From the sequence record PP337211: DNA of 64,000 nt. The stretch is one strand, 5' to 3'. Both the position numbers and the translations under genes were made by a program. Shown here piece after piece: positions 3,833 through 64,000 of this stretch. Source of the stretch: Escherichia phage ERS-1. Below the pieces are notes generated by a model. It saw only the letters and a list, made by a program, of their open reading frames with translations, searched no databases and was not told the origin of the DNA. Every line of letters begins with the position of its first letter. The first letter of the stretch is position 1.

Positions 3833-3951
3833 ATTTTACCCTTAATTGATTAACCAAGCATTGATAAGCACTAAACTATACTGCGAATAAAATTCTGGAC
3901 CAAAATGAAAAATCATATCATTTATAGTGTCCACAATATAATTCAATTTAA

Positions 3952-4419: not shown

Positions 4420-4446
4420 TGGTGTTTAATCCTATGCATGATTTCT

Positions 4447-4677: not shown

Positions 4678-4780
4678 TTTTTTTTTTTTTTTAGGTGCTG
4701 TCGATTCTGTTTGTAGTCGTCTGTTTAACCTTAGCAATACTAACTGAACCAAGTACAAAACAGTCAATTGCTAAGGTTAA
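4678..4780 (+). repeat. J-unit copy 1: T15 + aggtgctgtcgattctgtttgtagtcgtctg + perfect 14-bp palindrome arms (ttaaccttagcaat / attgctaaggttaa) around a 28-nt loop
   Basis: Directly read; ~85% identical by eye to the unit at 25997-26098; arms identical in both copies while the loops differ. Confidence 0.8.
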
Positions 4781-4857
4781 GTCAATTGCGTAGTGAAGTA
4801 AGAAAGTTGAAAAAATCAGTTTACATTGACGATGATTTTGATTACAATACTTCTCAA
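4781..4857 (+). repeat. perfect inverted copy of 2731-2807 (internal fragment of the T4-like ORF 2686..2961)
   Basis: 77/77 nt identical to the reverse complement of 2731-2807 by manual comparison. Confidence 0.85.
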
Positions 4858-4922
4858 CCAGTTTAAGTTTAAATTAATCTTTTGAGGTTTGTCGGAACAA
4901 TTTATATTAAACTGGTTCTTTT
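4858..4922 (+). other. hairpin (ccagttta ... taaactgg) followed by ttcttttt; terminator-like but with a 41-nt loop
   Basis: 8-bp inverted repeat 4858-4865 / 4907-4914 and downstream T-run. Confidence 0.3.
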
Positions 4923-4927
4923 TAAAC

Positions 4928-4971
4928 AGGTGCTGTCGATTCCGTTTGTAGTCGTCTGTTTAACCTTAGCA
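4928..4971 (+). repeat. left 31-bp inverted repeat of block A (aggtgctgtcgattccgtttgtagtcgtctg) plus ttaaccttagca half-site
   Basis: 30/31 identical to 4693-4723 and to the reverse complement of 25689-25719. Confidence 0.8.
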
Positions 4972-5002
4972 TATGTCTAATGTCGAAGCCACACACCACC
5001 GC

Positions 5003-5850
5003 CAGAGTTAAAGGATCGACTCCCATGGAACACCAGCACCTTCGGCATCAAGCTGAGCAAGATCTTCCCGTGGCTGGTTCAGGAAGGAGCTGCCGGGATC
5101 AATCGACTTCCCGTGGCGGACCTCCTCAACGCGCCCGGAAGGTGAACAGGCCTGCGCATGACCTTCGCCCAGCTCCGTCCAGGATGACCTGGCGGTGAAC
5201 GGTCGCCTTGGCGGGACGTTCAACCTGCTTCGCCGCCGGAAGGATGACGAAAGCGACGGGACCGCGGGCGCCGCCGCACGGGCGACTGTCCGTGAATGCC
5301 CGAACCTCCCTGGCCGGCTCGGCATGAGTTCGCCCTTCACGTGGTGGGGCCTTCCACCTCCCGGAGGAAGGCCGGGCGTCTGGGCGTCCGGACGATGTCA
5401 CCTGCCTGGAGCTGCGGCGGCGGCTCGTCACGCCTGCTCGGCGAAGGACCTGATTGGTGGGGCCTGGCTGTCTGGGTTGAAGCCCGGGACAGGTACTGTA
5501 CGAACACCGAGCATCCGAGGACCCTCCGGTGATGGTGGACATGGCGGGGATCAAGCGCAAGGACGCCAAAGGAAACTACCTGGGCCGTCCTACGGGATGG
5601 GCGGGGCGAAGATGTGCCTGGGCTCGGGCTCCCGACGATGATGGCCGTGCGCGGCCCCCGCTTCCGCTGTTCGACGCGGCACCTGCCCGGAGGGTCGGCG
5701 CCTGGTCGCGGAAGGGGCGCGGAGGTTCGAGGCCGCGGGGCCGGAGGGTCAGGCCCTCCTGGACACCCTCCACCCGGGTGCCCGTTCGCATCGGAGAAGC
5801 TGGCGAAGGCTTGCGAAGCCCGGGCGAAGGCCGTGGGCGGCGTCACATGA
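5003..5850 (+). pseudogene. first coding region of block A, hypothetical protein, frame lost repeatedly
   Basis: Protein-like stretches in three frames in succession (LPWNTSTFGIKLSKIFPWLVQEGAAGINRLPVADLL; DDLAVNGRLGGTFNLLRRRKDDESDGT; MVDMAGIKRKDAKGNYLGRPTGWAG; FASEKLAKACEARAKAVGGVT-stop at 5850). Confidence 0.35.
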
Positions 5851-16968: not shown

Positions 16969-19900
16969 GAATCGACTTGAAGGATGGAATTCCCTTCCCC
17001 CCTTGCGGACCGCGAAGTGGCCCGGATCGCGGAGGAGGCGGCGACACACCGCCCGGGAGCCGGCGACTGTGACCTGTGTGGCGAATGGAGCGGGAGGCTG
17101 GTGGAGGAGTCTGTGCGCCCTGTCGGACCGCCCGGGCTTTGCCGGTGAATCGAAGAAGTTGTATGAGGGCTCTACTTCTTGCAGGCCCCCCGCCACTCTC
17201 CTTCGTTGCAGGTACCGGCCTGAAAATGGAGAACGGCGATGACCTGGATTTCCGCCTCCAACCCGACACCCGCGCCACTGCCCCGCTTCGTGGCCGGTTT
17301 CACTGTCCTCGCCTCTGGCGGTAGCCCTCCGCGACCCTCGGCTACGCCTTCAGCCGCTAGAGCGTGGTTCCTGGCCTGGTCCGGCGACTCTGCATGGCAT
17401 GCTGGAGGATGTACCGTGAAGGACGTGTACTGGAACCTGGCCCACTACCCCCGTCTGGAAGGCTCGGGTGCCCCCGCCCTCGCCCTCCGAAGTTCCTGGC
17501 GTCATCCCCGACCGTCGCCCGAATTGAAGCCCTGGGTGGAGTTCCGCGCCCCGAAGGCTGCGCCGGTGGTGAAGGCGGGAGCGCTTCTGCCAGGGGCGCC
17601 GGGTGCCCGCCCCGCGCCCGGGCTGGCCAGTCCTGATGGAGCTGGCAAGCCCTGGTCCGCCGCTGCTCCATGGTCCAGCCCCGCGAAAGTCCGGTCGGCG
17701 TAGGAAGGACGGAACCGATCCTCGCCGGCGAGCGCCTGGGCTCGCCGCGGGCCTTCGACCACCACCCGGGTTGAAGGAGCCCGCGTGTATCTGGAAGGAT
17801 GAGCCGCCGCTGGAGGGAAAGGCCCGAGGAAGATGGAAGCGAGTACCAGAAGCGGGAGGGCTCCGGCCCTCCCCCCCGCGGGTCGAAAAAAGTTGTCTGC
17901 TGGGCTGACCTTCTTCGGGTTGGGTCACTTTTTGTTAGGCCGTAGAAATGGAGAACTGAAATCAGCCGACTCCCGCCCAGGTCGCTGCCCGCGAACTGAT
18001 CGCAGGCTGGGGCTCGCCTCGCTGGGCGATGTCCGGGTTGTCAAGCCGCTGACCCTCCCGGCCGGAGTACCTCCGCGGCCCGCTCCTTCGCCGGTGACCG
18101 CGCGATCCGCCGGATCGGTGCCGGTCCTCCGCGGGACGTCCCCCTGGCAGCTGATCGGCTTCGGACCTCGCGGAGGTCGCCGGGCCCTCTGGAAGTCGGC
18201 TGCCGTTGACCGGGAGGGCCTGGCTCTCCCCCTCCCGGAGAAGGAGCCCCTTGTGAACCGGTGGCCGCCTTCCCCACCCCCTCCCCTCGTCCCCACTCCT
18301 GTTCATCGGAGTCGGGGAGCTGGGGCTGCTCTTCACCCTCCGCGAGACGGAGCTGAAGGCCGTCCCGGGTCCTGGCCCACGGACGCGGTGGTGAATGGCG
18401 TGTATCGGGGTCCTCCGAGGTCCGTGCTCCCGTGAAGAACCTGAGCCGGGACCGACGAAGCCTTCGAGAAGGCCCGGAAGCCTCTGCAGCGTATGGGCCG
18501 AGCCGGTGACCTCCCGCGACTCCCTGCGCGAGGAAATGAACGCGATTCACCGCGTGACGCTGCGGAGCTGGAGCGCCGGGAGCGCGAGCGGAAGGAGCGC
18601 GAGGACCGCCTGGGCCGCGGAACGGGCCGCGGAGGAGGAGGAGAAGCGCCTGTACCTTCCTGGGCTGGAAGTTTGCCTTCGGACCTACGCGTGGCGAGTT
18701 CCCAGGCCCCGCGGGCTGGCCTCCGCCGGTCGATCCAGCCTCCGGACTTCGAGGAAGGTGGCCTGATGCGCCTGACCGCCCGTGAGGTCGCCCGCCGGGT
18801 CCCTGTCCTCGCCCGCCGAAGCCGAAGCCCGACCTGTACGTGGGCGAGCCGAGAGTGCATCACCTTCGACGTGACCGTGGTGCGCCGTACCCTTGCGCCC
18901 GTGACGCCTGGAACGGCTACGGTATCGAGACGGTCCAGGCGTTGCGATGATCGACCGCGCGACCGGGGCCTGCCTCGTGTCCAAGTCCGGGGCCTTCTAC
19001 GCGGAGGAAGGCGAGGAGCTGAAGATCAAGGCCACCGTGAAGGAGCACGCGGAGCACCGCGGCCAGGCCCAGACCGTTGTCCAGCGGGTCGCGGTGCTGG
19101 AGGACTACCGGATGCGCCGGGAACCTCTCAGCTCGCGGTTGTTCGGAGGGCGAGCTGTACGCCGCCTGCACCAGGACCCCCTCACCGGGGCTCTTACGCA
19201 GTGGCCTTTGCCGGAGCCCTCGGGGAGGCCCGGCCGTCGCCCTCGTTGACTGGACTCGCTGAAGTGGACGGGTCACCTGCCCGGGCTTACCGCGTGGGTG
19301 ATTAAGCTTCGCGCTTGGCGGACGCCCTCGTGCGATCCTTCGGAGCTGACCGGGCGTTCCGCGCGTCGGGCGATGAGTTCGCCGTTATGGGTGATAGCCG
19401 TGAACGTCTGCCCGGGCTCGCTTCTCCGCGCGAGGGTCCGGGTTTCTGCTTCGGACGGGGATCGGAGGCGGCGGAGGCGGACGGCGACCTGGCGCGTCGA
19501 GGGGCGGAGGGGGAGCGGTCCGGCCTTCGGGGCCGCGCGAGGGCTCCTCGACCGCCTTGGGGTCGATCATCGACCTCCGGGGGGCTTTACTTCTTCGGAG
19601 GCCCCCCGTCACACTTCTTTGTCGGGCGGTCCGGACCCGGAGAACGGCTGCCGGGGCGGCTGGGCATTTACTGTCTCCCCTGTCCAGGCCACGGACCTGC
19701 GCCTCCAAAGTTCTCCCGACCTTCTTTCGGGCGTGACTTCCTCCGGGTCCAAACGGCCCTGGACCGCCTCCTTAGATGGCGGAGGAGTAGGACGGTGCGC
19801 ACTGGTTCATGTACAAGCTGTCCAACGGTGCGACTGACCTGGCCCCGGCGATCACCGACCGGAAGCTGCGACTGACCGTGGACACCAACGGCTACGGGCG

Positions 19901-20634
19901 AGGTCAGCGGAGACGCCGCGGGCCTGATCGCCTGCCTGTTCGTGTCAACGCCCTCGCTGGAATACCCGCAGCGCCAGGACTACGTGGACCTGTCTACAAG
20001 CCGCGCGACTTCGCCTTCGACCGCCGCAGGCTGAGGAAATCACCGCTGCCTTCGACCTGATACCCTCGGCGCAGCCGACCGCCCCAACTTCCCGGCAAGG
20101 AGCAGATGACCGGTAGACCGCCCCCGGACCAAACCTCCTGCAGGAGACTTTCGTTGGTGTCGCCCCTGACGTGACCGCCCGCCGCGTCCGTCCTGGGCGA
20201 CTTCAGGTGCGCCTCGGCGACCGAGTCGATGCCGGCTTCCGTCCTTCGCCCCGGGCGGAAGTCGGACCCGGCGACCCTGAGCTGGAACCCGTTGGCCCGT
20301 TCACGCTGAAATGGCGACCCCGCAGGGCCTGCACATCCCGGCCGAGGTCCGGCTGGAACATCGCCTTGCCCGCCACTTCGACCGCCTGCTTACGATGGTC
20401 GGTGGACCCCCTCTGTAAGGTAGAAAAGGAGCCCGCGATGGCTGGGCGAGCCACCGCCGTTGGGAGAACCCTCCGTCACCTCCGCGACTGCGCGGAGCCG
20501 CGCACCCCCTGGGCGGATCCGGAAGCCCGCGCCCGGGCGTCCTCCTCCAACTCGCCGTGGAGGCGGCTGGAGGAGGTCGGGTGACGATCACCGCCGCGAG
20601 CTGGACGAAGCCCGAGCAACGCGGGAGGTGAGTG

Positions 20635-20907
20635 ATGAGCGGACGCTACAAGGTCCTGGCCGGGTCCCAGTGCCCGGCCACCGCCGCTCGACTACACCGT
20701 GGTGGATGTCCGGAGCCTTTGCCCGCGGGCGCCTCGGGTGCCGTCGATGCGACTGCGAGACGTTTGGCGAGGAGGAAGCCCTGCGGTTGCCCGCGCCCGA
20801 ACGCGGCGATCGGCGAGTTGAAGTGTACCCTCGCCCGGGCCGCTCGCCTGTTCGAGGAGGCCCTGCCGAAGTCGTGCTGGGCGCCAGCGCCCTGGACGCC
20901 GGCGTGA
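20635..20907 (+). CDS. hypothetical Cys-rich protein; start with GGGAGGTG RBS
   Basis: GGGAGGTGAGTG-ATG at 20621-20637; MSGRYKVLAGSQCPATAARLH...; C-terminal part protein-like (PCGCPRPNAAIGELKCTLARAARLFEEALPKSCWAPAPW). Confidence 0.4.
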   Translation: MSGRYKVLAGSQCPATAARLHRGGCPEPLPAGASGAVDATARRLARRKPCGCPRPNAAIGELKCTLARAARLFEEALPKSCWAPAPWTPA

Positions 20908-21825
20908 TCCGCTGCTTGGTCAGGTCCCGGCGAAGTCCGCGCGGCCCTGAAGGCTTGCGCCCTTGTGCGGAGGGGAAGTGCCCCGTACGGCCCCGAACCG
21001 CCCCTGGGCGAAGGAGGGCGGAGCATCACCCCCGGGCGCTGACGCCCTGATCCTGAGTTCGTGTCGACCTGGGCGGCTAGGGGTCAAGCGGCTGAAGGAC
21101 CGCCGGGCGAAGATCGCCGGCTGTTCGCCCCGGGACGGACGGAAGGCGACCGCCTGGCCCTGTACGTCGCCGGGCGGGCGACCCTCCCGCTTCGACGCGG
21201 CCCGCTGCGCCGGTACGCGCCCGCCGCCCGTTGGACCTCTGCCGCGTGACGACCTAGGTAACGGCTCCGCCCGCGTGGTGCCGAAGTCGTAACGAGACCG
21301 GAGAAGGAGAAGCGGCGAAGCGGGGAATCTACCGCGGCCCGATCCCTGCCCGATTCGGCAGACCTGCGCTGCTGCGCGAGGCGACCCGGCCATGCTCGTG
21401 GCGGTTCGATGACGGAGCCTGACCCGGAGCGGCGACCCGATCCCGGCGGAGAAGCCCGAAGGCCCGCCCGCGGACGCCCTGGGCTACGGCTCGCGCCTTC
21501 CCGGCGGAGGACTTCGAGGAGAACCGGACCTGCCCGACCTGCGAGGCGACCGGCTTTCGGCGGCTCGCGCCGGGTCCTGACCGCTGTACCTTCTGCGACG
21601 GGACGGCAAGGCGGGAACCCGCCGGAGGAGGACGGCGAGGCTGCCGGGGTGCCCCGCCCGACCGCCCGCGCGCGGTCGGTGACCTCCTCCGTGGGCATGA
21701 CCCGCGACGGCTACCGGCTCGCCGGGTGGTTGTCGAGTGCGAGGACGGCGCTGTGGCGAACTCCGCCAGGAACGAAGCCGGGACTGATCCTGGGTCCGGC
21801 TCCCGGTGATCCCGGGAGGTGAACG

Positions 21826-22490
21826 ATGTCCCTGGCTGAGTTCGAGGACCGCGTGGCGGATCCCCTGCCTCATCGTGGTCACCACCGGGAGCCCTGACGT
21901 GCCCGCGAAGTGCTGCGGCCCGCCTGAAGATCGCTACCCGGCGGAAGGCGGATGCGGTGAATGGGAAGTCCGCGACCGCCGCGGACGCCCGCCCCCTGGC
22001 CTGGAGCGGGGTATGACGGAGGCGGAGCGCGAAGCGGTTGACCTGGCCGTGTTCGATCCGTGCGGAGGACCGGCGATGACCTGCGTGCGCGTCCCCGGGG
22101 GTCGCTTGCCGTCGCCCTCTTCCGGCTCCGCCTCGCGGACGGCTCCTGCGCGTCGGAGCCCTGCCACCTGCGGGCTGCCTCTTCCGCGACCGGCGGCTGG
22201 CGTCTTCACACGAGTGGTGGAGGACCCCTGCGATCTGCGCCGCCCTGGACTGGTCCTTCAACGAGGAAAACGGGCCGACCGCCCTCGCCGCGGGATGCCC
22301 CGCCGGGTGGTCCCGCGGTGCCGACTGGTCGAGTCGGAGGCCGAAGGCTGCGGAAAACCGGCGGGCTCCCCCTCCTTCTCCCTTCCACCGGGTGCGCTTG
22401 GGTTACGGGAGTGCGCTTGGGTTCGGCTCCAAAAGTATGAAGGGGTGCGTGGCGGGAAGTTGTAGCCGTCTGGGGTTCCTGCCTTGCGCT
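21826..22490 (+). pseudogene. hypothetical protein, last gene before island 1; frame-disrupted
   Basis: GGGAGGTGAACG-ATG at 21813-21828 (MSLAEFEDRVADPL then stop); protein-like text resumes in other frames (GMTEAEREAVDLAVFDPCGGPAMTCVRVPGGRL; ICAALDWSFNEENGPTALAAGCPAGW); stop at 22488-22490. Confidence 0.35.
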
Positions 22491-22597
22491 TAGGTTACTT
22501 GGGATTCTTACCTGAAACAAATTTGCCCAGGGTTGACCCGGCGGACCGGCCTGAGAATCCTTGTTGAGGCTTCCGGCTGTCCGAGGGCTTCCTGGGG

Positions 22598-22700
22598 CTA
22601 AGGTAAGTAAGTTAAGTAAGTTAAGTATCTATCTATCTATCTATCTATAAAGGGCTGTTTTATATGGCCTTTTTGCCCGCTTGACTTTTTACTTTTTCGG
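22598..22700 (+). promoter_or_regulatory. island 1: AAGGTAAGTAAGTTAAGTAAGTTAAG (stops in all three frames) + (TATC)6 microsatellite + TATAAA + TTGACT + T-rich run
   Basis: Directly read; AT-rich intergenic module between the 22490 stop and the SD+GTG start at 22927; homologous inverted copy at 63420-63515. Confidence 0.7.
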
Positions 22701-22926
22701 ACGTGGAAGTGAAGCGCGACCCCTCGAACCTAAGCGGAGGACGCCGCGTGCCTGCTTGGGTCTGTTGCCCGTCGCTCCCGCGCCTCCCCCGCGGGCGAGC
22801 GCGACCCGCCCTTGGCGAACGCAGGCTTCGCCAGACTCGCGGCGAGGATGTCCTTGGGCGTGAGGCCGGGACGGATCGCCGCGTGATGCGCGATTGACGG
22901 GCGGTGCTGCCCAAGGGGGAGGTGAT

Positions 22927-24000
22927 GTGCCCATTGAGAAACTGAAGCCGAAGCCGATGGTGCCCTTGCCCTTGGATGGAAGCAGTACCTGGAGTTGTTC
23001 CGCACGTCCCGACCTGGGTGGGTGGAAGTACCGTGCGCGGAGGCGTGGGCGTCTCCGGCTCCGCCGTTCCACTATGCCGTTGAAGAATGACCCGGAGTTT
23101 GCCCTGGCTCTGCAGGACGCCCGCCAAGCGTGGATTGATGAGATCCTGTTGCGCGGCCCTGAAGCGGGCGCGGGACGGCGCGGCAGCGCCCGATCGGTCG
23201 GGGAAGTTCAAGGACGAAATTATTGGATGAGCGGGTGTACTGTGATTCGCTGATGGCCTTGACGCTCCGCGCCCGCCGTGCGGAGTTCGGGAGGACGGGA
23301 GGACGTGGCCTGTATCACTGCCCTCGGCCCGGTGGGCGCCGATCGTCCCGGGCCCCGGCGTCGACCGGACGACTGGGAATTGTTTGGGACCTCGCCCGCG
23401 GGACCGTGGGCCGTCCGACCGGGAGGGCGATGTTCGCCTGGTCCCAAGCGGGCAGGCGGTTGCCATCGCCGCCCGCCCGGACTACCCGATCGAGCGGCGC
23501 GAGGCGGAGCCCGGCGAGCTGCGGGCACCACGTGGACCCGGAGACGGGAAGGAGTCGGAGGCGACCTGGTGCGGGTACGGGTTGCAGCTCGCCTTCCTCG
23601 GCGTCCCGATCTTCGAGGTGCTGTATGAGGGGACGCGCGGCCCGGGCAAGACCGACTGCCGATGGACTTCCTCCAGCACGTGGGGAAGGGCTACGGTTGG
23701 AGCGGCGGGGTCCCCGTTCCGTCTGGCAGGGACCCCCGCTGTCGGACGTGATCAGACACAAAACCAACAAGTGGTTCAAGCGTTTCTTCCCGGCTAAGTA
23801 CAGGCAAGGTGGGTTGGCGACCTTCCCGGCACGGCGAGGAGCTGCTGCTGTGTCGGCGGTCGCCGGAGGATTATTGGAACTACCCACGGCCACGTGCCCG
23901 TGGATTGGCTGGGAAGAACTCTTGGGCTGGGCCTGACAGCGCCACCGTTGCGACGTCCTGCCGCCGCTCCCAAGCCGGGGATGCCCCGCCGCGACCCGGG
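22927..24000 (+). pseudogene. P-loop NTPase-containing coding region (copy 1), candidate packaging/terminase-like ATPase, frame-disrupted
   Basis: GGGGGAGGTG RBS then GTG 22927; Walker A GTRGPGKTD at 23630-23656; further protein-like segments in shifting frames (MPLKNDPEFALALQDARQAWIDEILL; DFLQHVGKGYGW; SDVIRHKTNKWFKRFFPAKYRQGG). Confidence 0.35.
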
Positions 24001-25688
24001 CGACCGGCCCCACGGCCCCGCCCCTGGCTGGGTCAGGCCCGCTCCCGCCTCCCCCGTTGCGCGGTCGGGTGATCCTGGACGCGATGCGAGACGGCGAGCG
24101 CGAACCGCCCCGGGTCGCCTTCCCGGTTCCTTTCCCATGAGAACCGGGTTGCTCCTCGCTGACCCGGAGGGCCTGGTATTCGAGCCGCGGCCCGGAACCC
24201 CTCCGACTCGCCGCCTGGCTCCACGGCTCCTGCAGGTTGTTTGCGGGAGGATGTTGTACGAGGCTTGCACCGCGGGACGCACCGCGGCGCCCTCCGTCCC
24301 GCTGTCGGTGATCCCGAAGCGGTGGAAGATCGACCTGCGGCTTCCACCGGGCCGGAGCCCTTTGCCGTCCTGTGGTGGGCGGAGTCGAATGGGAGCCGTT
24401 CGAGCGGAATGGCCGCGTGTACGGAAGGTGCGGGGGCGATCTGTACCTGATCCTGTAGCGGGTACGGCTGGAACGGGAACGCGAGCAGGGCGTCCTGCGG
24501 CTCGCCTCGGAGGTCGCCCAGTGGGTGAAGGACCGGGAGGAGGATTGGGCGCTGGAAGGTCGGGTCAGCCCTGGCCCCCGCGACCTTCTCCTCACGTGGA
24601 GGTATGGGGCCTGGATTGCTGTGGAGGCGGAGAGAGGGTGTGCGCCTGGACGCCCGCGGGAGGCTGGGCTCGCGGGTGGGCTGGGAGGGGTTGGCTGTCG
24701 GAGGGCGCTGCCTCCGGCGGCGGGGACCGCGCCAGGTCCCTGGGCTGTTCGGTTTTTTCGACCCGTGCTGGTGTCGTCCAGACGGTCCCGCGCTGCCCCG
24801 CGATGAGGTGTACCTGGGATGACGTGAAGGCGGAGGCGGAGGACCGGTTGGTGACGCGACCGCTACCGCGTGCGGGGTAAGCTGCGTGGTGCGGTGGTGG
24901 CCCGCAGAGGCTCGGCCGGGTCCTCGCCTTCGGGCGAGAATCCGCGAACCTGGAGAACCGACGGCCGGCGAGACGGCAGCCCTGCCGACCTGCGGGGCGT
25001 ATTAACCGCGCTCCCGCGCTGGCCCACGCTCCAGACGCCGCCTGGGCGGGACCGAAGGGCGCGCGAGGCGGGCGAGACGTACCTACCCCGCCCTCGGAGG
25101 AGACGGCAGGGTGGGCTATCGGGAGCGCCTGGCCTCCGCCGCTCCTCCTCGGCGGTTGAACCTGGGCGCCTGGACCTGCCCTGCAGCGGAGCCCTTTGCC
25201 AGCCGATCAAGCCGGCCAGGACGTGCCCGGAGGCGATCCAGGAGATGATCCTGCCTGACGTGGACCTCCTGGGGCTGCCCACGCGTTCGCCCGTCCTGTG
25301 GTTCCGCCAGCCTATCCGGTGAGGCCCTGGCCTCCTCGTCCAGACCGCCTCGCCCGGCCCCGCGGAGGATGGCCTACCCGGACCTGGCGGATGACCGCCG
25401 GGAGGGCCTGCGCCCTGACTGGGTGATGATCCAAGCCGGAGGCGCCCGCTGTTGGCCCGGTCGGAGGTGATCAAATGGGGCCCGAGTCCTCTGCGTGCTG
25501 CTGTCCAAGTTACGAGGCGGAGGCAGGACGGCTTCGCGCAGGCTTGGGAGCGCTGTCCGCGTCCTGGAGCTGGGCCTTGTCCCGGCTCTGGCAGCCGGTG
25601 AGAAGTTGGTGGTCCCGCAAGGAGGAGTGGGTGCTGGCGGATGAGCGGGCCATGGGGCTGAACCACGTCCCTGTGGTTGCCTTTACGC

Positions 25689-25719
25689 CAGACGACTACA
25701 AACGGAATCTACAGCACCT
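25689..25719 (-). repeat. right 31-bp inverted repeat of block A (reverse complement reads aggtgctgtagattccgtttgtagtcgtctg)
   Basis: 30/31 match to 4928-4958 in inverted orientation. Confidence 0.8.
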
Positions 25720-25725
25720 GAGTAT

Positions 25726-25771
25726 GTATTGCTAAGGTTAGAGGGAAACACGATAGAATCCAACAGCACCT
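25726..25771 (-). repeat. partial J-unit, variant b, inverted (aggtgctgt-tggattctatcgtgtttccctc-taaccttagcaatac on the minus strand)
   Basis: Shares the aggtgctgt head and taaccttagcaatac tail with the J-units; middle resembles the 26008-26040 variant. Confidence 0.7.
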
Positions 25772-25996
25772 AAAAAGGTTCAACTTTTTACTAAATAATA
25801 AATGTTGTAGTATCTTCTTAAAACGAAAAATTTAATTTGCTTTAAAACCTTCCCAATTTTTTTTGCCTTTTTTTAACATACGTCAGAACATGGAAGAATG
25901 GTGGCCGTTTTTTACACTGTGAAGAAACAATTTTGAACTTTTAAATGACTTCCATTTATATTGTTTTAATTTCCTTTTTTCCCGTTTGTTGTTAAT
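25772..25996. other. AT-rich spacer without a convincing ORF, phage-like (T-even-like) composition, T-runs
   Basis: Sharp GC drop between two GC-rich blocks; only very short ORFs; ends in a T11 run leading into J-unit 2. Confidence 0.4.
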
Positions 25997-26098
25997 TTTT
26001 TTTTTTAGGTGCTGTTCCGGATTTATCGTGTTTCCTGATTAACCTTAGCAATACGTAACTGAACGAAGTACATAAAAACACCAATTGCTAAGGTTAAA
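25997..26098 (+). repeat. J-unit copy 2: T11 + aggtgctgt + variant spacer + 14-bp palindrome arms around a 32-nt loop
   Basis: Same architecture and arm sequence as 4678-4780. Confidence 0.8.
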
Positions 26099-26099
26099 A

Positions 26100-27216
26100 G
26101 GTTACACAAACCCTGGACAAGCAGCACCCTCCCTTTGCGGTGTTCTCCGGCTCCGCCTTGTCCTTTGAGAGCGGAGGGGTGTCGCTTGTTGATGCAGCGG
26201 GCGATGGCGAACATGGACCAGAGGTGCGGGTGGTCCGCGAGGGCTGACGGATGCTTCTCGTCCGGTCCTGGTCCCACCCTTCCGGTTGGCTCCTGGAAGA
26301 TGTTGGGTACTGCCTGTTCCAGACCGGGTCCGCGGTCGGGCCGGGGCTTCCCGGCCTTGCGGTCCGGTAGATGTCGCGCCGGGCCTTCAAGGCGGCGACG
26401 TCGTCGACGCGCGGGGTGGTCGGTGCTGGGTCCTGGTCGGGCCCTCCGATGACGGCCTTGATGTCCTTCAGGGCCGTCTCCCTGTGGATGTCGCGGACCG
26501 TCTCGCCGTCCGCCAGGGCCTCCCGCGGACCTGGGCGATGGCGCGGTGCTTGTTGGTCCTTCCCTGGTCCTCCTCGACGGGCTTCCCGCCGTCGCGCTCC
26601 TGGATGTGCTTTGGCTTCCAGCGGCGTGTCCTGAAGGCCGGGTCGCCGCCGTTCGCCTTCGACCGCCACCCTGCGTTGGTACCTGTAGATGGTGCTGATG
26701 GCCGCCCTCAAACCTTACCGCCTTCACGTCCGGGTCCCGCCCAACCAGCTCCGCGACGGCCTTGGCGGCGGCTTGGGTCTTGATCCGGTCTGGGCCGGCG
26801 GTGGTCGCTCCGGCGGCGGCGGTGTAGTCCCCGATGATGGCGATGCCGTCCGGGGCGTGTTGCCGGGATCGGCTTGTGGTCCGGGGACGATGACGTTGAT
26901 GACGCGGGCGGATCGCGGGCCAGGCTGCGCGGGGGTGTGCTCTGCCGGAGCCGTATGCCCTGCCCGTCGATGTACTTCGGTTGGTTTTCCAGTTTGGTTG
27001 AAAACGGCGGAGCCGGAGCCCCCGCCTGGGGTTGCTGTTGGACCCTGCGCGATCGGATGATCTTGCGCTCGCCGCCGTCCTCCTCCGGCGGGGCTGGTTT
27101 CCCGACCTCTGAGTCTGGGCGAGCGGCCTTCGCCGCCCCAGGTTCCGAACCGCGGGCTCGGCTCGTCGTCGTCCGCGCGGTGGAGACCTGGCCGGTGGGG
27201 GGCGGCTTCCCCTCAC
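26100..27216 (-). pseudogene. hypothetical protein, frame-disrupted
   Basis: Protein-like segments in two minus frames (DGIAIIGDYTAAAGATTAGPDRIKTQAAAKAVAELVGRDPDVKAV; EALADGETVRDIHRETALKDIKAVIGGPDQDPAPTTPRVDDVAALKARRDIYRTARPG). Confidence 0.3.
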
Positions 27217-27521
27217 CTCCTGGAGGGCTGGCCCGTCGGTCCGGGTGAAGGTTCGGGACGCGCTGGCCGTGGCGGCCCCGCGGCGATCATTTCACGCCTT
27301 CCAAAGCCAGTGCCGGTTCGCCGGTTCCGGGCTTCCCGCGGCGGTCCAGGCGTGTCGTCGCGTAGGTCGTTGCCGCGCTCCGTCGCCGGTTCGGTACCTG
27401 CCGGCGGGCTTCGACCCGGCACGGCTCGCGATGGTCTTTCCGGGCTCCGGCCTGGTTCTCCGCGGGCTGTCGGCGAAGGCTTTGGTGCGCCCCGGGCTGA
27501 ACCGCTTTTGGAGGTGTTCGA

Positions 27522-28655
27522 TCATTGCTGGAGCCCTGCTGTAGCCCGCTTCCCGAATTTTGCGATTGCGTGGTCGTTGCCGACCGCGGCCTGGCGCTCG
27601 AAGCTGTGGCGGATGTCGTCGTGGGTGACGATCCCCGGGATTACCGGATTGACCTGATGGAGGTGTACATGCCCGACGCGCGCTCGCGATTTCGTCGGGA
27701 TGGTCCTGAAGGCTGATGGCCCCGGAGGCTCGTGCCGTTGTGGTCGTTGCCGGTGTTCGGTGACTTCTGGGCGTAGCTGTAGGGGTTCCGCTTCGGAGGT
27801 CGATGGCCGGATGGGGTAGCAGACGGCCGGGAAGAAGACTGGGCCGGGAGTTGGCGAAGGCTTCCGCCCCCGCCTGGGTGTTATGGGGCGCTTTGAAACG
27901 GTGAAGGGGTCCGTGAAGCTGGAGAAGCAGCCCGCGGCGGAGGTCCGGACTTCGAGAGGCATTTTGCGGACCTGCTCGCCGTAGTTCACCGGGACGCTGA
28001 TGAGGCCGGTGCCGCGGTAGCCCCGGAACCCGCTGTCGACGTAGAAGGCGCAACCCACTGTAGCCCCATAAGGCTCCGTCAGGATCGCCTCGCTGCAGGG
28101 GCGGGCGCGGGAGCCTCGCTTGTCGTTGTGCTTGTCCTGGCACCTGCCCTGAAGGGGCTTGGCGTTCGGGATGCGGATGTGCGGGAGGTAGGTGACGACC
28201 CTTTGAAGCCGGTAGGCCCAGCCCTTCACCTCCTTCTTGTCGTCTCTCCTTCGCGTTGCGGACCGTCCCCCCTGCCTTGCCGGAACTTCGCGCGCTGGCG
28301 CCGGTCCTGCACCCTTCTCCCCCATCGGGCCCGGAACTCCCGTTGGTTCGGTCCGGCGGCGAAATACTTGTAAGCCTCCTGAGCGGCTTCGCCGGTGCCT
28401 TCCTGCCCTTGCCTGCGTGGTCCGGTCATTCTCCTTCAACTGTGAAAAAAGTCTTGAGCGCCTTACCCGGAAGAAGTAAGCGGCGTTAATCGGCCCCGGC
28501 TCGCCACGTTGTTTCCGGGAGGTCCCCTGGCCTTCGCTCCTCCGAATGCCGGCGACCGGCGAACTGCCGGAACCGCGCGGCGACCCTTCCGCGTCATATC
28601 CTCCAGGTTGTCCTTTTGGGACCCGAGGGAACAAATGCTCGGGGTTGACGCACAA
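27522..28655 (-). pseudogene. hypothetical protein with possible metal-dependent hydrolase motifs
   Basis: Long protein-like stretch (KGWAYRLQRVVTYLPHIRIPNAKPLQGRCQDKHNDKRG...) and GHVHLH; family not identified. Confidence 0.25.
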
Positions 28656-30700: not shown

Positions 30701-31363
30701 TTACCCTTGCCCTTGTCGGCCTGGCGGGTCTGGCGGGCGTCTGCCTTCGGCGGACTTTGCGGCTCGTGGGCCGGGATCGCGTGGCCTTCCGGGACCTCCG
30801 ACGTGGAACCGCTCGTGCCGTCCGCGTCGAAGGCGGAGCGGACCCCGCAGCCCTTTGGTCGCTTGTCCTGCTGAAGCCGGAGTGGGCGGTGGCTTCGGTC
30901 CTGGGCTTGTTGCTGCCCTTGGGCTTCGACCTGTTCGGCCGGTCCTCCTGTTTGGGCGGGACCCCCTACGTCGGGAGACGGCCGCTCCGAGCCCTCGCGG
31001 CGGGGGATCGGGGCGTGGCCCGGGCGGCAGGTTGGCGCCGCGCGGGCGCGGGCCTTCCTCCTCCGCGGACTTCGGAGCCTTCTGGGCCTTCGGAGGCGAC
31101 GGGCGGGGGTTGCGGTTTGTTTGCGGTTTCGACCTTCTGGGTTCGGCCTGCTGCTGCTCGGCACTTCCGGGCGCGCTTCGGCGGCGCCAGGCTTCTGTGT
31201 GGGGGTATGGCGGTGGTCTTGTCGGCAAGCGGTGGACGTTCGGGACGGACTTGCCGTTGCGGAAGGTGCCGATGACTTCGTCGGGACCTGCTCGACCGGG
31301 CCGGGCTGGACCTCGCTGGGAGGCTTCGGTGTAGGCGACGTTGTTGAAGTTGATGGTGTTCAT
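30701..31363 (-). CDS. hypothetical protein with strong RBS (AGAAGGAG, 6 nt, ATG at 31363); frame decays after ~50 codons
   Basis: RC of 31361-31378 gives AGAAGGAGCCTACC-ATG; N-terminus MNTINFNNVAYTEASQ... Confidence 0.4.
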   Translation of the reverse strand: MNTINFNNVAYTEASQRGPARPGRAGPDEVIGTFRNGKSVPNVHRLPTRPPPYPHTEAWRRRSAPGSAEQQQAEPRRSKPQTNRNPRPSPPKAQKAPKSAEEEGPRPRGANLPPGPRPDPPPRGLGAAVSRRRGSRPNRRTGRTGRSPRAATSPGPKPPPTPASAGQATKGLRGPLRLRRGRHERFHVGGPGRPRDPGPRAAKSAEGRRPPDPPGRQGQG

Positions 31364-31380
31364 GGTAGGCTCCTTCTGGG

Positions 31381-31460
31381 GTTGAGGTGCGATCTTGTTC
31401 GACCGTGAGAGAAATCTTAACCCTGCCCCCGAAGAAGTAAAGTGGTTTGACTAAACTTTT
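31381..31460 (-). promoter_or_regulatory. lower-GC intergenic island with sigma70-like elements (TTTACT-17-TAAGAT on the minus strand) and a TTGACT/T-run motif resembling the islands
   Basis: Read on the minus strand upstream of the 31363 start. Confidence 0.3.
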
Positions 31461-31949
31461 TCAGTTTCCCGTCCGAAGGCCAGGTGCCCGTTGGACGGCG
31501 GAGGGCGAACCGTTGGCGCCTCTTCCCAGAAGGCCCGGGCGGCGTCTCGTGCCCTGTTCTCCTGTACCAATGGTTGCGCCCCGAGGTGTGCGGGAACCCA
31601 GCGACCTCGAAGCCCCAGCGATGTTGGGTTGCACTGGTGGAAGTCCAGGTGCTGGGCCGGGTAGCCGAAAGCCTCTGCGACGTTCCGCCCAACGAGGATG
31701 ACGTGCCGACCGCCCAACAAGGGCTTCCCTCGCGGCTGCGGGCCCCGCGTCCCGGGCGGGCCGCTGTCGTCCCGCTTCCAGCGCCCCGGGAAGGTGTGGA
31801 GCAGGTGGTGCGGTCGAAGGTCTTGAGGTAGTCCTTGGGCGATAGGCCTGCCTGCTCGCCCGACGCCCTCCCGCGGAGGACCGCGGAGGGGAGCCAGGGG
31901 CCGGTCCGGGTCCGCGTTAGGTCCTGGCGCTGGCCGATCTGGGCTTGTT

Positions 31950-37171: not shown

Positions 37172-38699
37172 GGTGTCCGTGCCCGTCGCCCCCGCCGCGG
37201 GATCGCCCTGGCCGTCGCGGGCCCGCTCCTCCGGCGGACGGCCTCCGCCCGATCACCTGCCCGTTATGGTACAGGGGCGCTCGCCCTGGAACCTGGGCCT
37301 CGGCGTCCGCCCGCTCGTTGCGTTTCCCCTGCCGTTGGCCGGACCGCGCCGACGCCGCGCTCGCGGAGGGCGTCCGGATTGCGGCGATGCCGCTTTGCAA
37401 CTGGGCCCGGTCGATGCCCTTGCGCGGACTCCTCCATCAATTAGGTGCCGGGCGACGGTTCGGCCCCGCAATTCGGGTACCTTGGGTTCCGCTTCGTCGG
37501 TCGGGAGGTAGCTGTGATCTGCTGGAGGCGGAGGAGCCGGGTGATGGCGAGGGCGGCGATGACCGGGGCGGGGCCCTCCGCGCCCGTTGGGGGCGTCCCC
37601 GTCGGGTCGGTAGATGGAAGCGGTTGGGTTTGCCGCCGTTTGCCCGGCCCGTCGGTGCGTCTCGGCGACGGCTCGCGGCGACCGCTTCCGCGTCCCGGCT
37701 CACCCTGTTTCCCGCCCCTGTCATGTACTCGTCCGTGCTGGTGATATGCTTGCCCTGCTCCGGGGGTCCGTTTGGGAGAACTGCTCGCCGGTACTGTCGG
37801 CCGGGAGGTCTGGTGCGCCTCCCTTCGTGACCCGGGAGGAGACGGGCTGGAGTAGGGCGGTCGCGTGTCGGGCGGCGAGAGCCCTTCTGCCGTCCGTCTC
37901 CGCCTTCGTTCTTCTTGGTCTTTGGCTTGAAGGCGGTCGGGTCCTGCTCTTCCGGTCGTGAAGTGCTGTCTTGAACTCCGTGAAGGTGCCCTAGCGGTTG
38001 GGCTTCTGTAGTTGTTGTTTGTCCACCATCTCGGCTGTACAGGTGTTGAAGGGTCCCGGCTGTCGGAGTCCCGGCTGGGACCTGCCCTGAACGGCGCGTA
38101 CTTCGCGGAGCGGAGGATGGCAGCTGGTGCGCTCCGCGGTCGGGTCTTGATGCAGCGCGCCTTCCCTGACGTAATGTAGGCGGCGCTTGTCCAAGAAGTC
38201 GGTTGGCCCGCTTCCCGGAGGTGGTCAAGGCTTCAGGCGATGGCGGAGCCTGGTGAAGCCCTCGTGCTCGATGACGGCCTTGACCGCCTGCTCGTGCCCT
38301 TGGTGTCGGCCTTCGGGCTCTGGTAGTGGAAGGCCCGGACGTGCTTGATCGCGTTCGGGTACGTGGTCCGGAGATTCCCTCTCAACCCAGTTGCGGTGCA
38401 CGCTGTTCGGGCGACCACCTCGCTGTCGATGAGCCGCGGAGCCAGAGCCAGAGGCGGTGTCGATGGTCAGCTTGGACTTGCCGGCGCCCTGTTCCCGGAA
38501 GATCGCGCGGGCTTCTTCTTCGCGGGAGCGTGTCACTCCTCGCGCTGGCGGTTGAAGGGTTCGGCTTGAAGGGGTATTGGAGGGCGGCCTCATTTCTCGG
38601 CGATGCCCGGAAGATAGCCCAGCTGGGCGGCGAAGGCGAGCGGAGAATCATGTGCGCTTGGGAGGGGGGCCCAACGCTCGACTTCGTGTGCTGAAGAAG

Positions 38700-38795
38700 T
38701 ATGAAGTGGAGAGGCAGTGGAAGCCCTGTGGGGCTGGGGGTTTATATATTCTTCTTCTTCTTCTTTAACTCACTCAACTTACTTACCTTAACCCC
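38700..38795 (-). promoter_or_regulatory. island 2 (inverted): GGTTAAGGTAAGTAAGTTGAGTGAGTTAA + (GAA)5 + TATATAAA on the minus strand
   Basis: Same motif grammar as islands 1 and 3 but a different microsatellite; flanks are not clearly homologous to those of islands 1 and 3. Confidence 0.65.
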
Positions 38796-41700
38796 CGCAC
38801 GGCCTCTTGGAACCTAGGCAACGGTCGCCGGTCGCCTCCCTGGGGGTCCCGGCGATTTATCGGGCGAAGTAGAACTGAACTGGAGAAGTGAAGTAACCTA
38901 AGCGAGGAGGGTCGGAGCTGTTACGGCGCTGGGCCTTCCATGGCGCTTGGGGCTCAGACCTTCGGGCGTGAAGGTAAGTATCCCAGCGTTCTCATTTGCG
39001 GAACCTCTCCTTGAGGCCCAGGAGGATCGGGGAGACCAGGCTGCAGAAGAAGATGCCCAGCAGTGGCACGGTTCCCCTTCCGCTCCTGTCCTCCCCGGAC
39101 TCGCGCCACTGGCGGAGGTGTTGGAAGTCCCTCTGGCGGCCAGCGGCTGCACGTGTTGGCCCGAGCTGGACTGTGTTTGCTTCACGGCTTCTGCCGCTTA
39201 CGCTGTTGGCTCCGCGCGGACGGCCCGGCTTCCGCGGCTCGCTTCGCCGCGTCCTCGCGGTAGCTTCGCCGCCCGGGTCTGTGGCCGGGCGGCGATGTCT
39301 TCGACTTGCTCCGGGCGGGGGTGTCGGTCCTGCGCGGGTCACCTCGGCTGTACTCCACGGAGTCCGGGCCCCTGGGGGTTCAGATGGCCTGTCCTGTCCG
39401 CGTCCTTCCCCTGCGAGCCCGTGGACCGTGTCGGCTTGCCGGGTGGTGTCGAGTATCGGCCCCCGATCCGGAGGCGGCGCCGCCGCCGGCGGCTTCGCGG
39501 TCGTGCCGTAGCCGCGGAGGAACTTCCCGCGCCGCCGTGCCGGTAGGCGCTGTTGGCATCCTCCGGCGGAAATGGTCCTCCCCTTCTTCGGCGAAGACTT
39601 CTGCCGTCGCCGCGCTCGAATAGCGCGCGATCCGTTGGCCCGTACCCGGTTGTTCGTGCCGGTCGGGCTCGCCGGGCTAGGCCATGCTCCCCGTCCGCGG
39701 GCGAAGCCGGTTGGGCGGTCGTGGTCGCGGACTTCGCGTGGCCCTTAGAAGGCCGTCGGTCCTGGCGGAGGAAAGACTGAAATTGGTTGTAGGGCGCTGG
39801 TCCCCCAGCGCGCCGTTCCCTTGATGCCCGTTCGGGCCGTCACTGATAGCCGTTGGGACCTTCGGTACAGTTTGGGTATGTTCCCGAGTCGCTGTTCCCG
39901 GTGCGACGTGGGATCGGTAGCTGTCCTGGCCGTCGCGGACCGCCGTGACCTCATCCGTTCCGGCCGCGGCGTTCTCCGTCGCCTCGTCGGTCGGTTTCTG
40001 CCGGCGCCGGTTGTGCCCGGCTCCGATTTTCGGGAGCGCGCCGCCGTTGGCCGCGTAGATGTCCGCGGTAGGTGTACCCGGCTCCGGCGATGTTCGCCGC
40101 GGAGTGGTCGATGACGGATGGATCCGCTGCGGTCCGGTCGCGGTGTGCCGGGTACAGGCTTGTCTCTCCGAGGATAGCCGAAGGATACTGGAGAACTGCT
40201 TTGCCGGAAGTTCCCGGGAGCGTAGGGGCGCGCGAAACGGCTACCAGCGCCTTCGAGTCCTCCGGCGGGCGGAGGTGTCCTACGCCACCCGGACTGGCCG
40301 GCCCTTCGCGGCGATGGTCTCGCCGCCTGTTATACGGAGCCGGTCGGCGCGCGGGCGTCCTCCGCGGAACGGAAACTGCGCCCCGGCTGCGCGTTCCGCG
40401 CAGACGAAGAATCGAAAGCAATCCCCACCCTGTCACTGACCCGTTCACCAGGTCGATAGCGTCCCTTGCCTGCGATTTCGTTGTCGGTTGCCGTCCACCG
40501 CTCCGTGGGGTTCGGTGCGGGAGGGCCTGGTTGGACCTGCTGGATGGAGGTCTGTATGGGCGTGATCGCGTTCGTCCTGGCCAGCGTGCGCCGCGGGGTC
40601 GCCGGTGGCCGCGTATGCGTAGGACCCGCCCGTGGCTTGTCCCTGGTCGGGGCTCTGGAGGTACTGGCGGGCTTGCCCTTTGCCGATCCAAGGCGGAGGC
40701 GTTGTCCAGCGCCTGGAGCTCGCCGAGGCTCGTTCGCCAAGTTGGAACAGTTCGCCTCCTCCGTAACGGCGGAGGGCGAACGGGTTGGGCGCTTGAACCG
40801 GGTCCTCTGCCGAGCCCTGGTTGCCCGTAGGTGGAGGACGGAAGGCCAAGGCTCGGTTGTGCTCCGCCGCATTCACCCGCTGGGCCGGTCTGCAAGTTCA
40901 CCCGAGGCCGCGGAACCATGTCGGCGAGGTGGTGCTGGTCCTGTAGAAGCGGTGCCACTTGGGCGTGTTGGCGCGTTCCGGCTTCCCCGCATGTGACGCG
41001 TGCGAAGGGGGTGGACTTCTGGGGAGGCTGCACCCGTGTTCGCTGCGTTCGCCGCGGTGCTTCATCCCTGGACAGTTCGCCGTCTGGCTCGCCACGCTCG
41101 TTGGGCTTGAATCGCTGCGAGGTCCTGGACGGGCCGGAGTTGCTCTGTGGAGCCTTGCGGACGGTAGGTTGTCGTGATTGTCGGTTTCTGCAGAGCCCGG
41201 GCGCTCGAGGACTCTGCTGGATCCGCGTCGGACTCGTCGCAACCTGCGGAGGTCGCTGCCAGCCTCGCCAAACCGCTTTGCCCCTTAATCGACCAGTTGT
41301 CGGTTGCGTGTAGGCAGGTTGCGGCTGGGTGGTGGTGTTGTGTACACGAAGGACTGATGGAGCTCCTGCTCGTCCGTCAATTCGGTCCAGGCGGCCGGCT
41401 CTTCCCGCGCTAAGGCAGGTCTGCCGCGCGAAAGGGGCGTCGTCGCGCGTTGATCCGGTACTCCGTCCCAGTCCGGGTTCGTCTGCTGTTCTCCGTGCAT
41501 GACGTGGGGGCGGGGTTCGCTGAGCCGTTGACGTCCCGCCTTCGCCGGATACTTGGCCTTGCCCGGAGGCGCTTCGCCTTTTGGCGCCTGGCCTTCCGAT
41601 AGGTGGCGGCCTGGCGCCCCTTCCGAAGGTCTGCCAGCACGCCCCGGAAGGCCCGGTATGACCGTGCCGAGTTTGGACTGGAGGTAGACTGTTCGCGGCC

Positions 41701-63190: not shown

Positions 63191-63419
63191 TTGCGGTTCG
63201 CTCCCCCTTCGGCGTGTACTGTTCGTCGGTTGTGCTGCGTGGCCACCCGTCCCGGCCTCGGTCGGGCTTTCCCTCGCCGCGAGTATAGCGTGAGCTTGGG
63301 CAATAGCCAAGGGCGGGTCGCGCCCGCCCGCGGGGAGAGGTCGAGGAGCGTGTGGGCGGATTGCCGGCAGGCGCGCAGCGTCCTCCGCTTAGGTTCGAGG
63401 GCTGCGTTCCACTTTCGTC

Positions 63420-63515
63420 CGAAAAAAAAAAAGTCAAGCGGTAAAGGTTAAAAACCTGCCCTTTATATACAGACAGACAGATAGATACTTAACTCACTAA
63501 CTCACTTACCTTAAC
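63420..63515 (-). promoter_or_regulatory. island 3 (inverted copy of island 1): GTTAAGGTAAGTGAGTTAGTGAGTTAAG + (TATC)2(TGTC)3 + TATATAAA + TTGACT + T11 on the minus strand
   Basis: Reverse complement aligns base-for-base with 22560-22700, with substitutions and a different microsatellite composition. Confidence 0.7.
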
Positions 63516-64000
63516 CCCCTGACAGCCCTTCGGACAGCCGAAACCCTCAGTGGTGATTCTCTGGGCGGTCCGCCGGGTCGATTTGTCGGCAGAATTTATT
63601 TCAGGGTAAAGATCGAAGGTAACCTAGCTAAGGACGTGAACCCCAGACGGTTTGACCTCCCGCCTCGCCTCGCTTTCTCTTTTCGGAGCTGAACCCAGTG
63701 CATTTCGTAACCCGGGAGGTTCCCGGTCACGGAAGTGGAGAAGGAGGAGGGAGCCCCGCCGGTTTTCCGCTGGCCTTCGGCCTCCTGTAGCGAAGTCGGT
63801 CGATTGCCGCCCGGCGGGGCATTCAGGGGCGGGCTGCCCAGGTGTCGACCTGGATGGAAGGGGGTGAGGAGCCGCCCCGGCGGGCCTCCAGGTGGAGGGG
63901 AGGGGGTGGTTGTTGACGTAGGTGGAGCGGGGCGGTGGAATTGAGGGCGGCGTCCTCCGGGTCCCACGCCGCCCTCGACGGCCTGTCATCCCAGGTCGGT

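Follow-up and report, generated by a model that had tools for sequence, protein, structure and literature searches.

Several described systems offer points of comparison for the locus analysed here. Coliphages 186 (pR/pL) and P2 (Pe/Pc) carry convergent promoter switches in which two promoters stand face to face. The OOP RNA of phage lambda is a short antisense RNA, transcribed from a constitutive promoter near ori and ending at an intrinsic terminator. Replication origins that combine a promoter with an AT-rich unwinding element include T4 oriF/oriG and the primary origin of T7, while SPP1 has twin origins (oriL/oriR).

For phage YuA, transcription has been studied directly. Its GenBank record credits two fragments, 489-568 and 33014-33160, with 'medium activity (1000 MU)' promoters that have clear -35 and -10 boxes, based on the promoter trap of Ceyssens et al. 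2008; the -35/-10 assignment is a prediction within each fragment. ONT-cappable-seq (Putzeys et al. 2024, 10.1101/2023.10.13.562163; PMC10914365) identified a minus-strand transcription start site (TSS) at 612, named P002 and labelled 'phage promoter' in Table S3, from which antisense units extend from 612 to 411 and from 612 to 60. The same study (PMC10914365) reports two gene-proximal promoters, P003 (TSS 814) and P014 (TSS 33417), RNA 3′ ends at 411 (-) and 471 (+) at a hairpin upstream, and a transcript that starts at 40 and reaches 1004/1068. Putzeys et al. class P014 as a sigma70 promoter and equate it with the 2008 trap result. Because the trap fragment 33014-33160 excludes P014, the two studies probably detected different promoters. 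Prior annotation of the elements described below is fragmentary, consisting of one TSS in a supplementary table, two trap fragments and predicted 'terminators' in the LKO4 record. Intergenic elements are not discussed in the Lydia/Mesyanzhinovviridae paper, and the 9NA and Mecenats66 papers are uninformative.

The window, meaning the whole stretch of 64,000 nucleotides that was analysed, is a chimera of concatenated, barcoded raw nanopore reads and no contiguous genome segment. It is made up of one T4-like read and two error-rich YuA/M6-like (Yuavirus) reads in opposite orientations (Table 1). GC content rises abruptly from 33% to about 68% close to position 5000, and an AT-rich block of 400 nt lies at 25.7-26.1 kb. 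The two GC-rich reads belong to the genus Yuavirus, with 77-90% similarity to YuA, M6 and LKO4 and collinearity over 20 kb and 38 kb. Against YuA itself both pieces show 77-81% identity, about one gap opening per 25 nt and reading frames broken throughout, from which we conclude that they are of raw-read quality. The boundaries carry Oxford Nanopore ligation adapter sequence and native-barcode flanks. Units of the form AGGTGCTG-(24 nt)-TTAACCTTAGCA occur at 4693, 4928 and 26007, with a complement at 26086, where chance predicts zero, and at least four different 24-nt barcode-like inserts are found across both junctions (4693-5047, 25723-26130). An 83-nt inverted repeat (4781-4863 versus 2725-2807, 99% complementary) has one arm between two barcode units, so that this arm is a very short read of that T4-like region from the reverse strand, and an artefact. 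The AT-rich, low-complexity stretch of about 240 nt at 25771-26006 has a single barcode pair around it and resembles a junk read or noise. Mapping of both raw-quality reads to YuA also explains a 3-kb inverted repeat (22336-25407 / 60776-63785) as one genome region read twice.

Errors against YuA are base-specific on the read strand: A is wrong in 33-43% of cases (mostly A-to-G or deleted), T in 20-22% (T-to-C), C in 17-18% and G in 10-11%. These errors also give the second read its odd AT skew (-0.35). Unlike the Yuavirus reads, the T4-like read in this record has an accuracy of 97%. In M6-like phages, 5-(2-aminoethyl)uridine is present at about 30% of T positions (PMC5889632). Scans of the whole window returned no Rfam family, no tRNA and no tmRNA, and a search of a plasmid collection gave no match. 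Since the record is a chimera of raw reads, copy number, orientation and copy-specific repeats in the window call for caution as partly artefactual; the window exaggerates both the copy number and the variability of the element considered here.

The original prediction described three copies, in two orientations, of an intergenic island with a shared motif. The motif is real. The 26-mer AAGGTAAGTAAGTTAAGTAAGTTAAG is matched with 0 mismatches in island 1 and with 3 in island 2, where dinucleotide shuffles give an expectation of 0.00, and a fuzzy search recovers a third core copy with two substitutions and a 1-nt deletion. In each copy the core is followed by a short-unit AT tract and then by TATA(T)AAA, and all three islands do lie between genes, ahead of a gene start, as had been proposed. 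The number of loci is two, however: piecewise mapping to YuA places islands 1 and 3 at the same locus upstream of terS (YuA 33160-33270), read twice, and island 2 is the true second copy, a paralog upstream of the helicase gene gp02 (YuA 622-680). The two orientations are a product of the chimera, as both copies face the same way as the genes in YuA, and the CTTGACT with T-run ascribed to two copies is one locus described twice. Both substitutions in island 3 and all three mismatches in island 2 are A-to-G on the motif strand (T-to-C on the window + strand). Because the core and (TATC)5 are invariant in every clean genome compared, the A/G alternatives and the supposedly copy-specific microsatellite (TGTC)3(TATC)2 are miscalls of that invariant sequence. 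What had been read as (TATC)6 is (TATC)5 followed by TATAAA.

Table 1. Composition of the window and features of the terS and helicase modules within it (positions count from the first nucleotide of the window)
Feature	Position	Strand	Details
T4-like piece	1-4667		97% identical to Tequatrovirus records (phages ime09, KFS-EC3); gp55, nrdH, nrdG and nrdD 3′ end on minus strand
Read junction, artefact	4693..5047		two AGGTGCTG-(24 nt)-TTAACCTTAGCA units, adapter remnants, ~125-nt inverted T4-like mini-read
First Yuavirus piece	5042-25688	+	aligns with YuA 17375-36370
terS-module left arm	22489..22524	+	CTTAGGTTACTTGGGATTCTTACCT with TGAAAC/AAATTT; orthologous to the sigma70 promoter trapped in YuA (-35 annotated as TTAGGT, -10 as TGAAAT)
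Island 1 core, 26-mer AAGGTAAGTAAGTTAAGTAAGTTAAG	22600..22625	+	when reverse-complemented, an inverted left-arm copy
Island 1 AT tract, (TATC)5 + TATAAA	22626..22651	+	TATAAA (22646-22651) pairs with TTTATA (22659-22664), small palindrome
Hairpin CGCTTGACTT / AAGTGAAGCG, loop TTTACTTTTTCGGACGTGG	22678..22716	+	loop like upstream element of YuA 'phage promoters'
Ortholog of YuA P014 (TTGGCT-17-TATACT, TSS 33417)	22811..22843	+	blurred by read errors; terS start near 22921-22927
Read junction, artefact	25723..26130		barcode units, adapter TATGTACTTCGTTCAGTTACGTATTGCT (26047-26074, - strand; zero expected by chance), ~240-nt low-complexity read
Second Yuavirus piece	26142-64000	-	aligns with YuA 12902->79, then 58663->32926 round the circle
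Ortholog of YuA P003 (GGGCTATACT, TSS 814)	38604..38623	-	helicase gene start near 38580
Hairpin CTCCACTTC / GAAGTCGAG, loop ATACTTCTTCAGCACAC	38677..38711	-	after island 2
Island 2 AT tract, (AAG)5 AA TATATAAA	38741..38765	-	fixed length
Island 2 core	38764..38789	-	3 read errors; ortholog of YuA 626-651, -39..-14 of leftward TSS P002 (612, - strand)
Helicase-module left arm (CTTAGGTTACTTCAC...) and conserved leader TTCGCCCGATAAATCG	38853..38902	-	ortholog of YuA promoter-trap fragment 489-568
Helicase-module upstream hairpin GCGCTTGGG...CCCAAGCGC	38943..38989	-	ortholog of YuA bidirectional termination site (3′ ends 411 - strand, 471 + strand)
Ortholog of P014 (TTGGCT-17-TATACT)	63276..63311	-	intact in second read
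Hairpin after island 3	63405..63440	-	error-rich copy of 22678-22716
Island 3 AT tract	63462..63487	-	(TATC)5 TATAAA miscalled as TATCTATCTGTCTGTCTGTATATAAA
Island 3 core	63488..63512	-	island 1 locus; 2 substitutions and 1 deletion from read error
terS-module left arm, second read	63592..63627	-	many errors

Each island belongs to a larger module which, in gene orientation, is composed of an GCGCTTGGG...CCCAAGCGC hairpin, a left arm, a leader box, a GC-rich spacer, the core, the AT tract, a second hairpin and a gene-proximal promoter. The left arm consists of CTTAGGTTACTT...CTTACCT followed by TGAAAT or TAAATT, the invariant leader box is TTCGCCCGAYAAATCG, the GC-rich spacer between leader box and core contains lineage-specific hairpins, and the gene-proximal second promoter has TATACT as its -10. 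Reverse-complemented, the core gives a gapless alignment with the left-arm promoter about 115 nt upstream, in which 22 of 30 positions are identical. The 25-nt pattern shared by the two (arm consensus CTTA-NN-TTACTT-NNN-TT-N-CTTACCT) matches only arm and core sites in the window and in YuA, against a chance expectation of 0.00. Left arm and core are spaced by 119-121 nt in both Yuavirus paralogs, whose spacers are non-homologous, and the arms co-vary between genera (CCTGAAA/TTTAAGG in YuA versus CCTGG/CCAGG in Bordetella phages). A small-ORF reading of the leader was rejected, as the two paralogs share no ORF.

The stem of the hairpin after the island shows a compensatory change between genera (CGCTTGACTT/AAGTGAAGCG versus GCTTGGGGT/ATCCTAAGC), and in a 20-sequence module alignment analysed on both strands with RNAalifold only this hairpin is conserved (energies -2.0, -0.1 and -7.3). 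Folding of the YuA antisense RNA gives z = -0.96. After the terS island the hairpin loop (TTTACTTTTTCGG) resembles the upstream element of the YuA 'phage promoters'. Those promoters (YuA 7722, 10500, 22639, 29058, 31098) look like a GC stem with the loop TTTACTTCTTCGG, followed by CACTATACTT; the post-island loops (window 22688-22706 / 38686-38702) nearly copy either that loop or the ATACTTCTTCA start region, but lack all other promoter parts.

A motif search in phage genomes found the element in 63 GenBank records, nearly always at two places per record, and in at least 24 IMG/VR contigs. Of the GenBank records, 53 belong to Pseudomonas Yuavirus, 9 to Bordetella Vojvodinavirus and 1 to a Sphaerotilus phage. 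Scanning 100,044 bacterial and archaeal genomes with the 24-mer returned only a few misbinned MAG contigs of phage origin and no host chromosomal site. Presence in M6, YuA, LKO4, Bordetella phages and dozens of metagenomic contigs excludes a synthetic-biology part. Every one of the 30+ independent contigs has the element ahead of either the gp02 helicase or terS. The core GGTAAGTAAGTTAAGTAAGTTAAG is invariant, with the identical 24-mer in both paralogs and in the Bordetella phages. For example, the 50 nt of GGTAAGTAAGTTAAGTAAGTTAAG(TATC)5TATAAA are 100% identical between YuA (terS copy) and Bordetella phage CN2, while 200-column flanks are 48-49% identical. The AT tract measures 25-27 nt (30 in the Vojvodinavirus/Bordetella phages) whether built from TATC, AAG or TAA, and this constancy across three repeat units fits a role in spacing or composition. 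Scored in 60-nt windows, YuA has no sequence more AT-rich than the two islands (68% and 75% AT versus 36% overall). Two readings of the tract were rejected, namely a hypervariable, phase-variable microsatellite, as tract length is nearly invariant across independent genomes, and an Hfq/Crc sponge acting via ARN repeats in (AAG)n and (TAA)n, as the most conserved tract, (TATC)5, is no ARN repeat.

With a looser pattern, variants of the motif were recovered in a third lineage of 60-63% GC (before terS and/or helicase), in a 47% GC phage that is terS-terL kin of Rhizobium phage RHph_I72 and Pseudanabaena phage Pam3 (before terS and helicase) and in a contig of 32% GC with a 68% identical TerL (before terS and/or helicase). 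Retention of the motif in GC-poor relatives, over a range of 32-65% GC, means that selection acts on the sequence and not just on AT-richness. In the 47% GC relative, a perfect 23-mer stands on the gene-sense strand and is followed by TTTATATT, before both terS and helicase; judged by its sequence, this site looks like an ordinary rightward, gene-directed promoter. Distant GC-poor relatives (IMGVR_UViG_3300043400_000014, IMGVR_UViG_3300037330_000123, RHph_I72 17400-17800) have the motif or clusters of GTTAAG/CTTAAC boxes before terS and helicase; the motif strand is flipped in the 47% GC phage, and the 32% GC contig has inverted arms of about 75 nt around an AT-rich centre. Together these relatives suggest a regulatory or recognition system common to a large siphovirus supergroup. 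Paralogous modules also swap parts: some terS-type flanks accompany an AAG tract, one helicase locus is flanked in the terS manner, and (TATC)5 fills both copies in a Bordetella-like lineage. This points to part exchange between modules, putatively by recombination or gene conversion at the shared core.

The islands had also been taken for promoter modules on account of TATA(T)AAA and CTTGACT. The two large regulatory intergenic regions of YuA-like phages do hold experimentally supported promoters and a bidirectional terminator, but the promoters are not at those motifs. They are a sigma70 fragment about 90-115 nt upstream of the island, a downstream TTGGCT-17-TATACT (TSS 33417) or GGGCTATACT (TSS 814), and a leftward start from the reverse complement of the core. 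Both trap fragments cover the left arm and end before the island, and the -50..+1 sequence of P002 is the reverse complement of island 2. The boxes of P002 are TTAACT-N18-TAAACT (4/6 + 4/6), with the TSS 8 nt past the -10 TAAACT, the core at -39..-14 and the AT tract at about -40..-65. This -10 is peculiar to the helicase copy of YuA, the one with the mapped TSS; elsewhere TAAACC, TAACCC, TAGCCC, TCCTTT, GGAACC or ACAGAC takes its place, and the three window copies have no T at -7. Strict promoter and terminator scans of both YuA modules, on both strands, detected P014 alone, with no sigma70 match in either island. The YuA cappable-seq tables list no start or end at the terS island and no TSS at the left-arm promoters (PMC10914365).

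A tentative explanation, which we prefer while giving it somewhat less than an even chance, is that the island is the inverted promoter-like arm of a face-to-face promoter/operator module that heads each gene block and yields an antisense transcript. The blocks so headed would be the helicase/DNA-metabolism genes and the terminase/structural genes. Both arms would be copies of one promoter-like sequence, the left arm acting as a host sigma70 promoter directed at the genes; the two arms face each other because the island core is the left-arm sequence inverted and placed downstream. Rightward activity is documented by the promoter-trap annotation and leftward activity by cappable-seq, in separate studies. 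In YuA, the core of island 2 would drive leftward RNA from 612 to the hairpin at 411 or on to 60, antisense to the rightward promoter and its leader, and the AT tract (microsatellite plus TATA(T)AAA) would occupy an UP-like or spacer position of this leftward promoter and may function like an UP element. Convergent transcription, a shared DNA-binding factor on the arms, or both, might then control the entry of transcription into each block, for example by shutting off an early, host-dependent promoter later in infection. The terS copy would presumably act like the helicase copy. Our confidence in the facing-arm arrangement is restrained because the leftward -10 is conserved only in the copy with a mapped TSS, because the strict scan was negative and because identity in the spacer is tighter than promoters need.

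That invariance of the 24-nt core across paralogs and genera, 'spacer' positions included, points to a candidate sequence-specific binder. The module may accordingly be read as an operator or binding array for a phage or host DNA-binding protein with no intrinsic promoter function, the P002 start being a by-product of a lineage-specific base, and candidate binders would be the presumed cofactor of the YuA 'phage promoters' or an H-NS-family silencer such as MvaT. We regard this as rather unlikely. It is consistent with the sameness of the 24-mer across paralogs, genera and 32-65% GC, with the tandem 9-nt units of the core (TAAGTAAGT), with inverted arms held at a constant 119-121 nt over non-homologous spacers, with a TTACTT common to the core and the upstream element of the YuA phage promoters (CTTTACTTCTTCGG), and with a -7 T restricted to YuA; but an experimental TSS exists in YuA, and the reading overlaps the facing-arm explanation, differing mainly in whether RNA polymerase starts there. 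Similarly improbable, though still to be taken seriously, is a pair of replication origins in which the 24-mer and flanking box repeats bind an initiator or helicase loader, the AT tract is the unwinding element and the upstream promoter activates or primes. In YuA an AT-rich, easily melted tract does adjoin repeats: no other spot in the 64% GC genome is as AT-rich as the islands, an invariant core sits beside a tract that varies in sequence at fixed length, and module-restricted repeats occur in both orientations (GCGCTTGGG, GAAGTSRAGCG, the leader box). One copy also stands directly before the first replication gene, the promoter reads into the island, and the leftward -10 is unconserved. 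Cumulative GC and AT skew of YuA has no turning point at the islands, which counts weakly since all genes are on one strand. Also against an origin, the motif is kept in GC-poor relatives with no AT-rich outlier, and in the 47% GC lineage it has the appearance of a gene-directed promoter. A broader variant, rather unlikely as well, would make the 24-mer and AT tract primarily a recognition-and-melting site for a putative conserved phage protein (e.g. an origin pair or loading site), to which the arm adds transcriptional activation, in a supergroup of 32-65% GC that spans Yuavirus, Vojvodinavirus and the RHph_I72 relatives and retains the site ahead of its helicase and terminase genes.

Packaging offers another possible role, as repeat-rich, bent, AT-rich DNA is typical of pac regions (SPP1, P1), and the repeats would then bind the small terminase and initiate headful packaging. 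A copy is always present 300-400 nt ahead of terS, including in the 32% GC phage with a 68% identical TerL, and circularly permuted headful packaging is reported for these phages (PMC11946847). We nevertheless consider a pac site very unlikely, given that every lineage departs from a single site, with another copy, conserved just as well, in front of the helicase at a distance of about 26-33 kb, that the leftward TSS was mapped on this helicase copy, and that the two reads of the window do not end at the islands. Hardly more credible is the reading first given to the islands, in which all-frame stops and a terminator form an insulator and TATA/TTGACT a same-strand promoter. For the + strand it is already largely refuted. 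The position between gene blocks fits an insulator, and two features of the LKO4 record, covering TATAAAGGGCTG...TTTTT and GCCCGCTTGACTTTTT, are labelled 'terminator', but these features are predictions. An intrinsic terminator (GC-rich stem plus T-run) is absent from YuA 380-860 and 32840-33510 on either strand, the only stem in the islands being AAAGG/CCTTT with a 14-nt loop, and since transcription from position 40 of YuA continues across island 2 as far as 1004/1068, this island does not act as a strong terminator or insulator on the + strand. TATAAA precedes TTGACT by about 30 nt on that strand, which is the wrong order for -10 and -35. TAA is indeed present in every frame, a property that follows from a (TAAG)n-like repeat, but there is nothing for it to stop, as the upstream ORFs end about 210 nt (helicase copy) or 320 nt (terS copy) earlier. 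Least probable is an intron, a reading that we reject, or else a structured non-coding RNA with the island inside it. AGGTAAGT is similar to the 5′ splice site of eukaryotes, and a long 5′ leader would include the island if the upstream promoter fires. The element nonetheless belongs to a bacterial virus and lies between gp49 and gp50 (gp49 ends at 32839, gp50 starts at 33499) and between gp01 and gp02, and so has no exons to join; the window has no Rfam match, RNAalifold conserves nothing beyond the post-island hairpin, and while (AAG)n and (TAA)n are possible Hfq ARN motifs, the best-conserved tract is none.

The islands are a genuine, tightly conserved, non-coding regulatory DNA element of a known phage genus. 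YuA/M6-like phages are common candidates for therapy against Pseudomonas aeruginosa, and their regulatory logic is barely known. Defining this compact stretch of about 50 nt, which stands where each gene block begins and is conserved far above its surroundings, has allowed us to join scattered data (the two trap fragments, the one antisense start and the LKO4 predictions) and provides a concrete target for engineering, or for locating the early/late switch or origin of the phage.

Set against the known systems, the island shares with terminators and synthetic three-frame stop cassettes a TAA in all frames, an intergenic location and nearby T-runs, and departs from them in having no GC-rich stem with U-tract, in being read through and in being a natural sequence of isolates and metagenomes. 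With the YuA 'phage promoters' (GGGCTTTACTTCTTCGG-N8-CACTATACTT) it has TTACTT in common, and the hairpin loop TTTACTTTTTCGG is nearly their upstream element; unlike them, the island has no CACTATACT -10 block, and its conserved part is a 24-nt tandem repeat instead of a hairpin-loop element. Like the T4, T7 and SPP1 origins, the module has a promoter reading into an AT-rich tract, flanking repeats and two copies per genome, one of them beside replication genes, whereas its motif persists in AT-rich relatives that have no unwinding outlier. The resemblance to lambda OOP lies in the discrete leftward RNA of about 201 nt from P002, which terminates at a GC-rich hairpin with ATTCTCATTTTT after it and runs antisense to the 3′ end of gp01 as well as to the rightward promoter and leader; unlike OOP, this RNA has no conserved fold and is mapped in one phage at one of two copies. 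Compared with the 186 and P2 switches, the arms in YuA are inverted copies of one sequence, there are two modules per genome, the leftward -10 is unconserved, and YuA is reported to be without lysogeny genes. As in 186 and P2, the arms face each other in a regulatory region at the head of an operon, with starts tens of bp apart (about 68 bp in YuA, from a predicted rightward start at about 544 to the leftward one at 612), and overlapping transcripts would permit interference.
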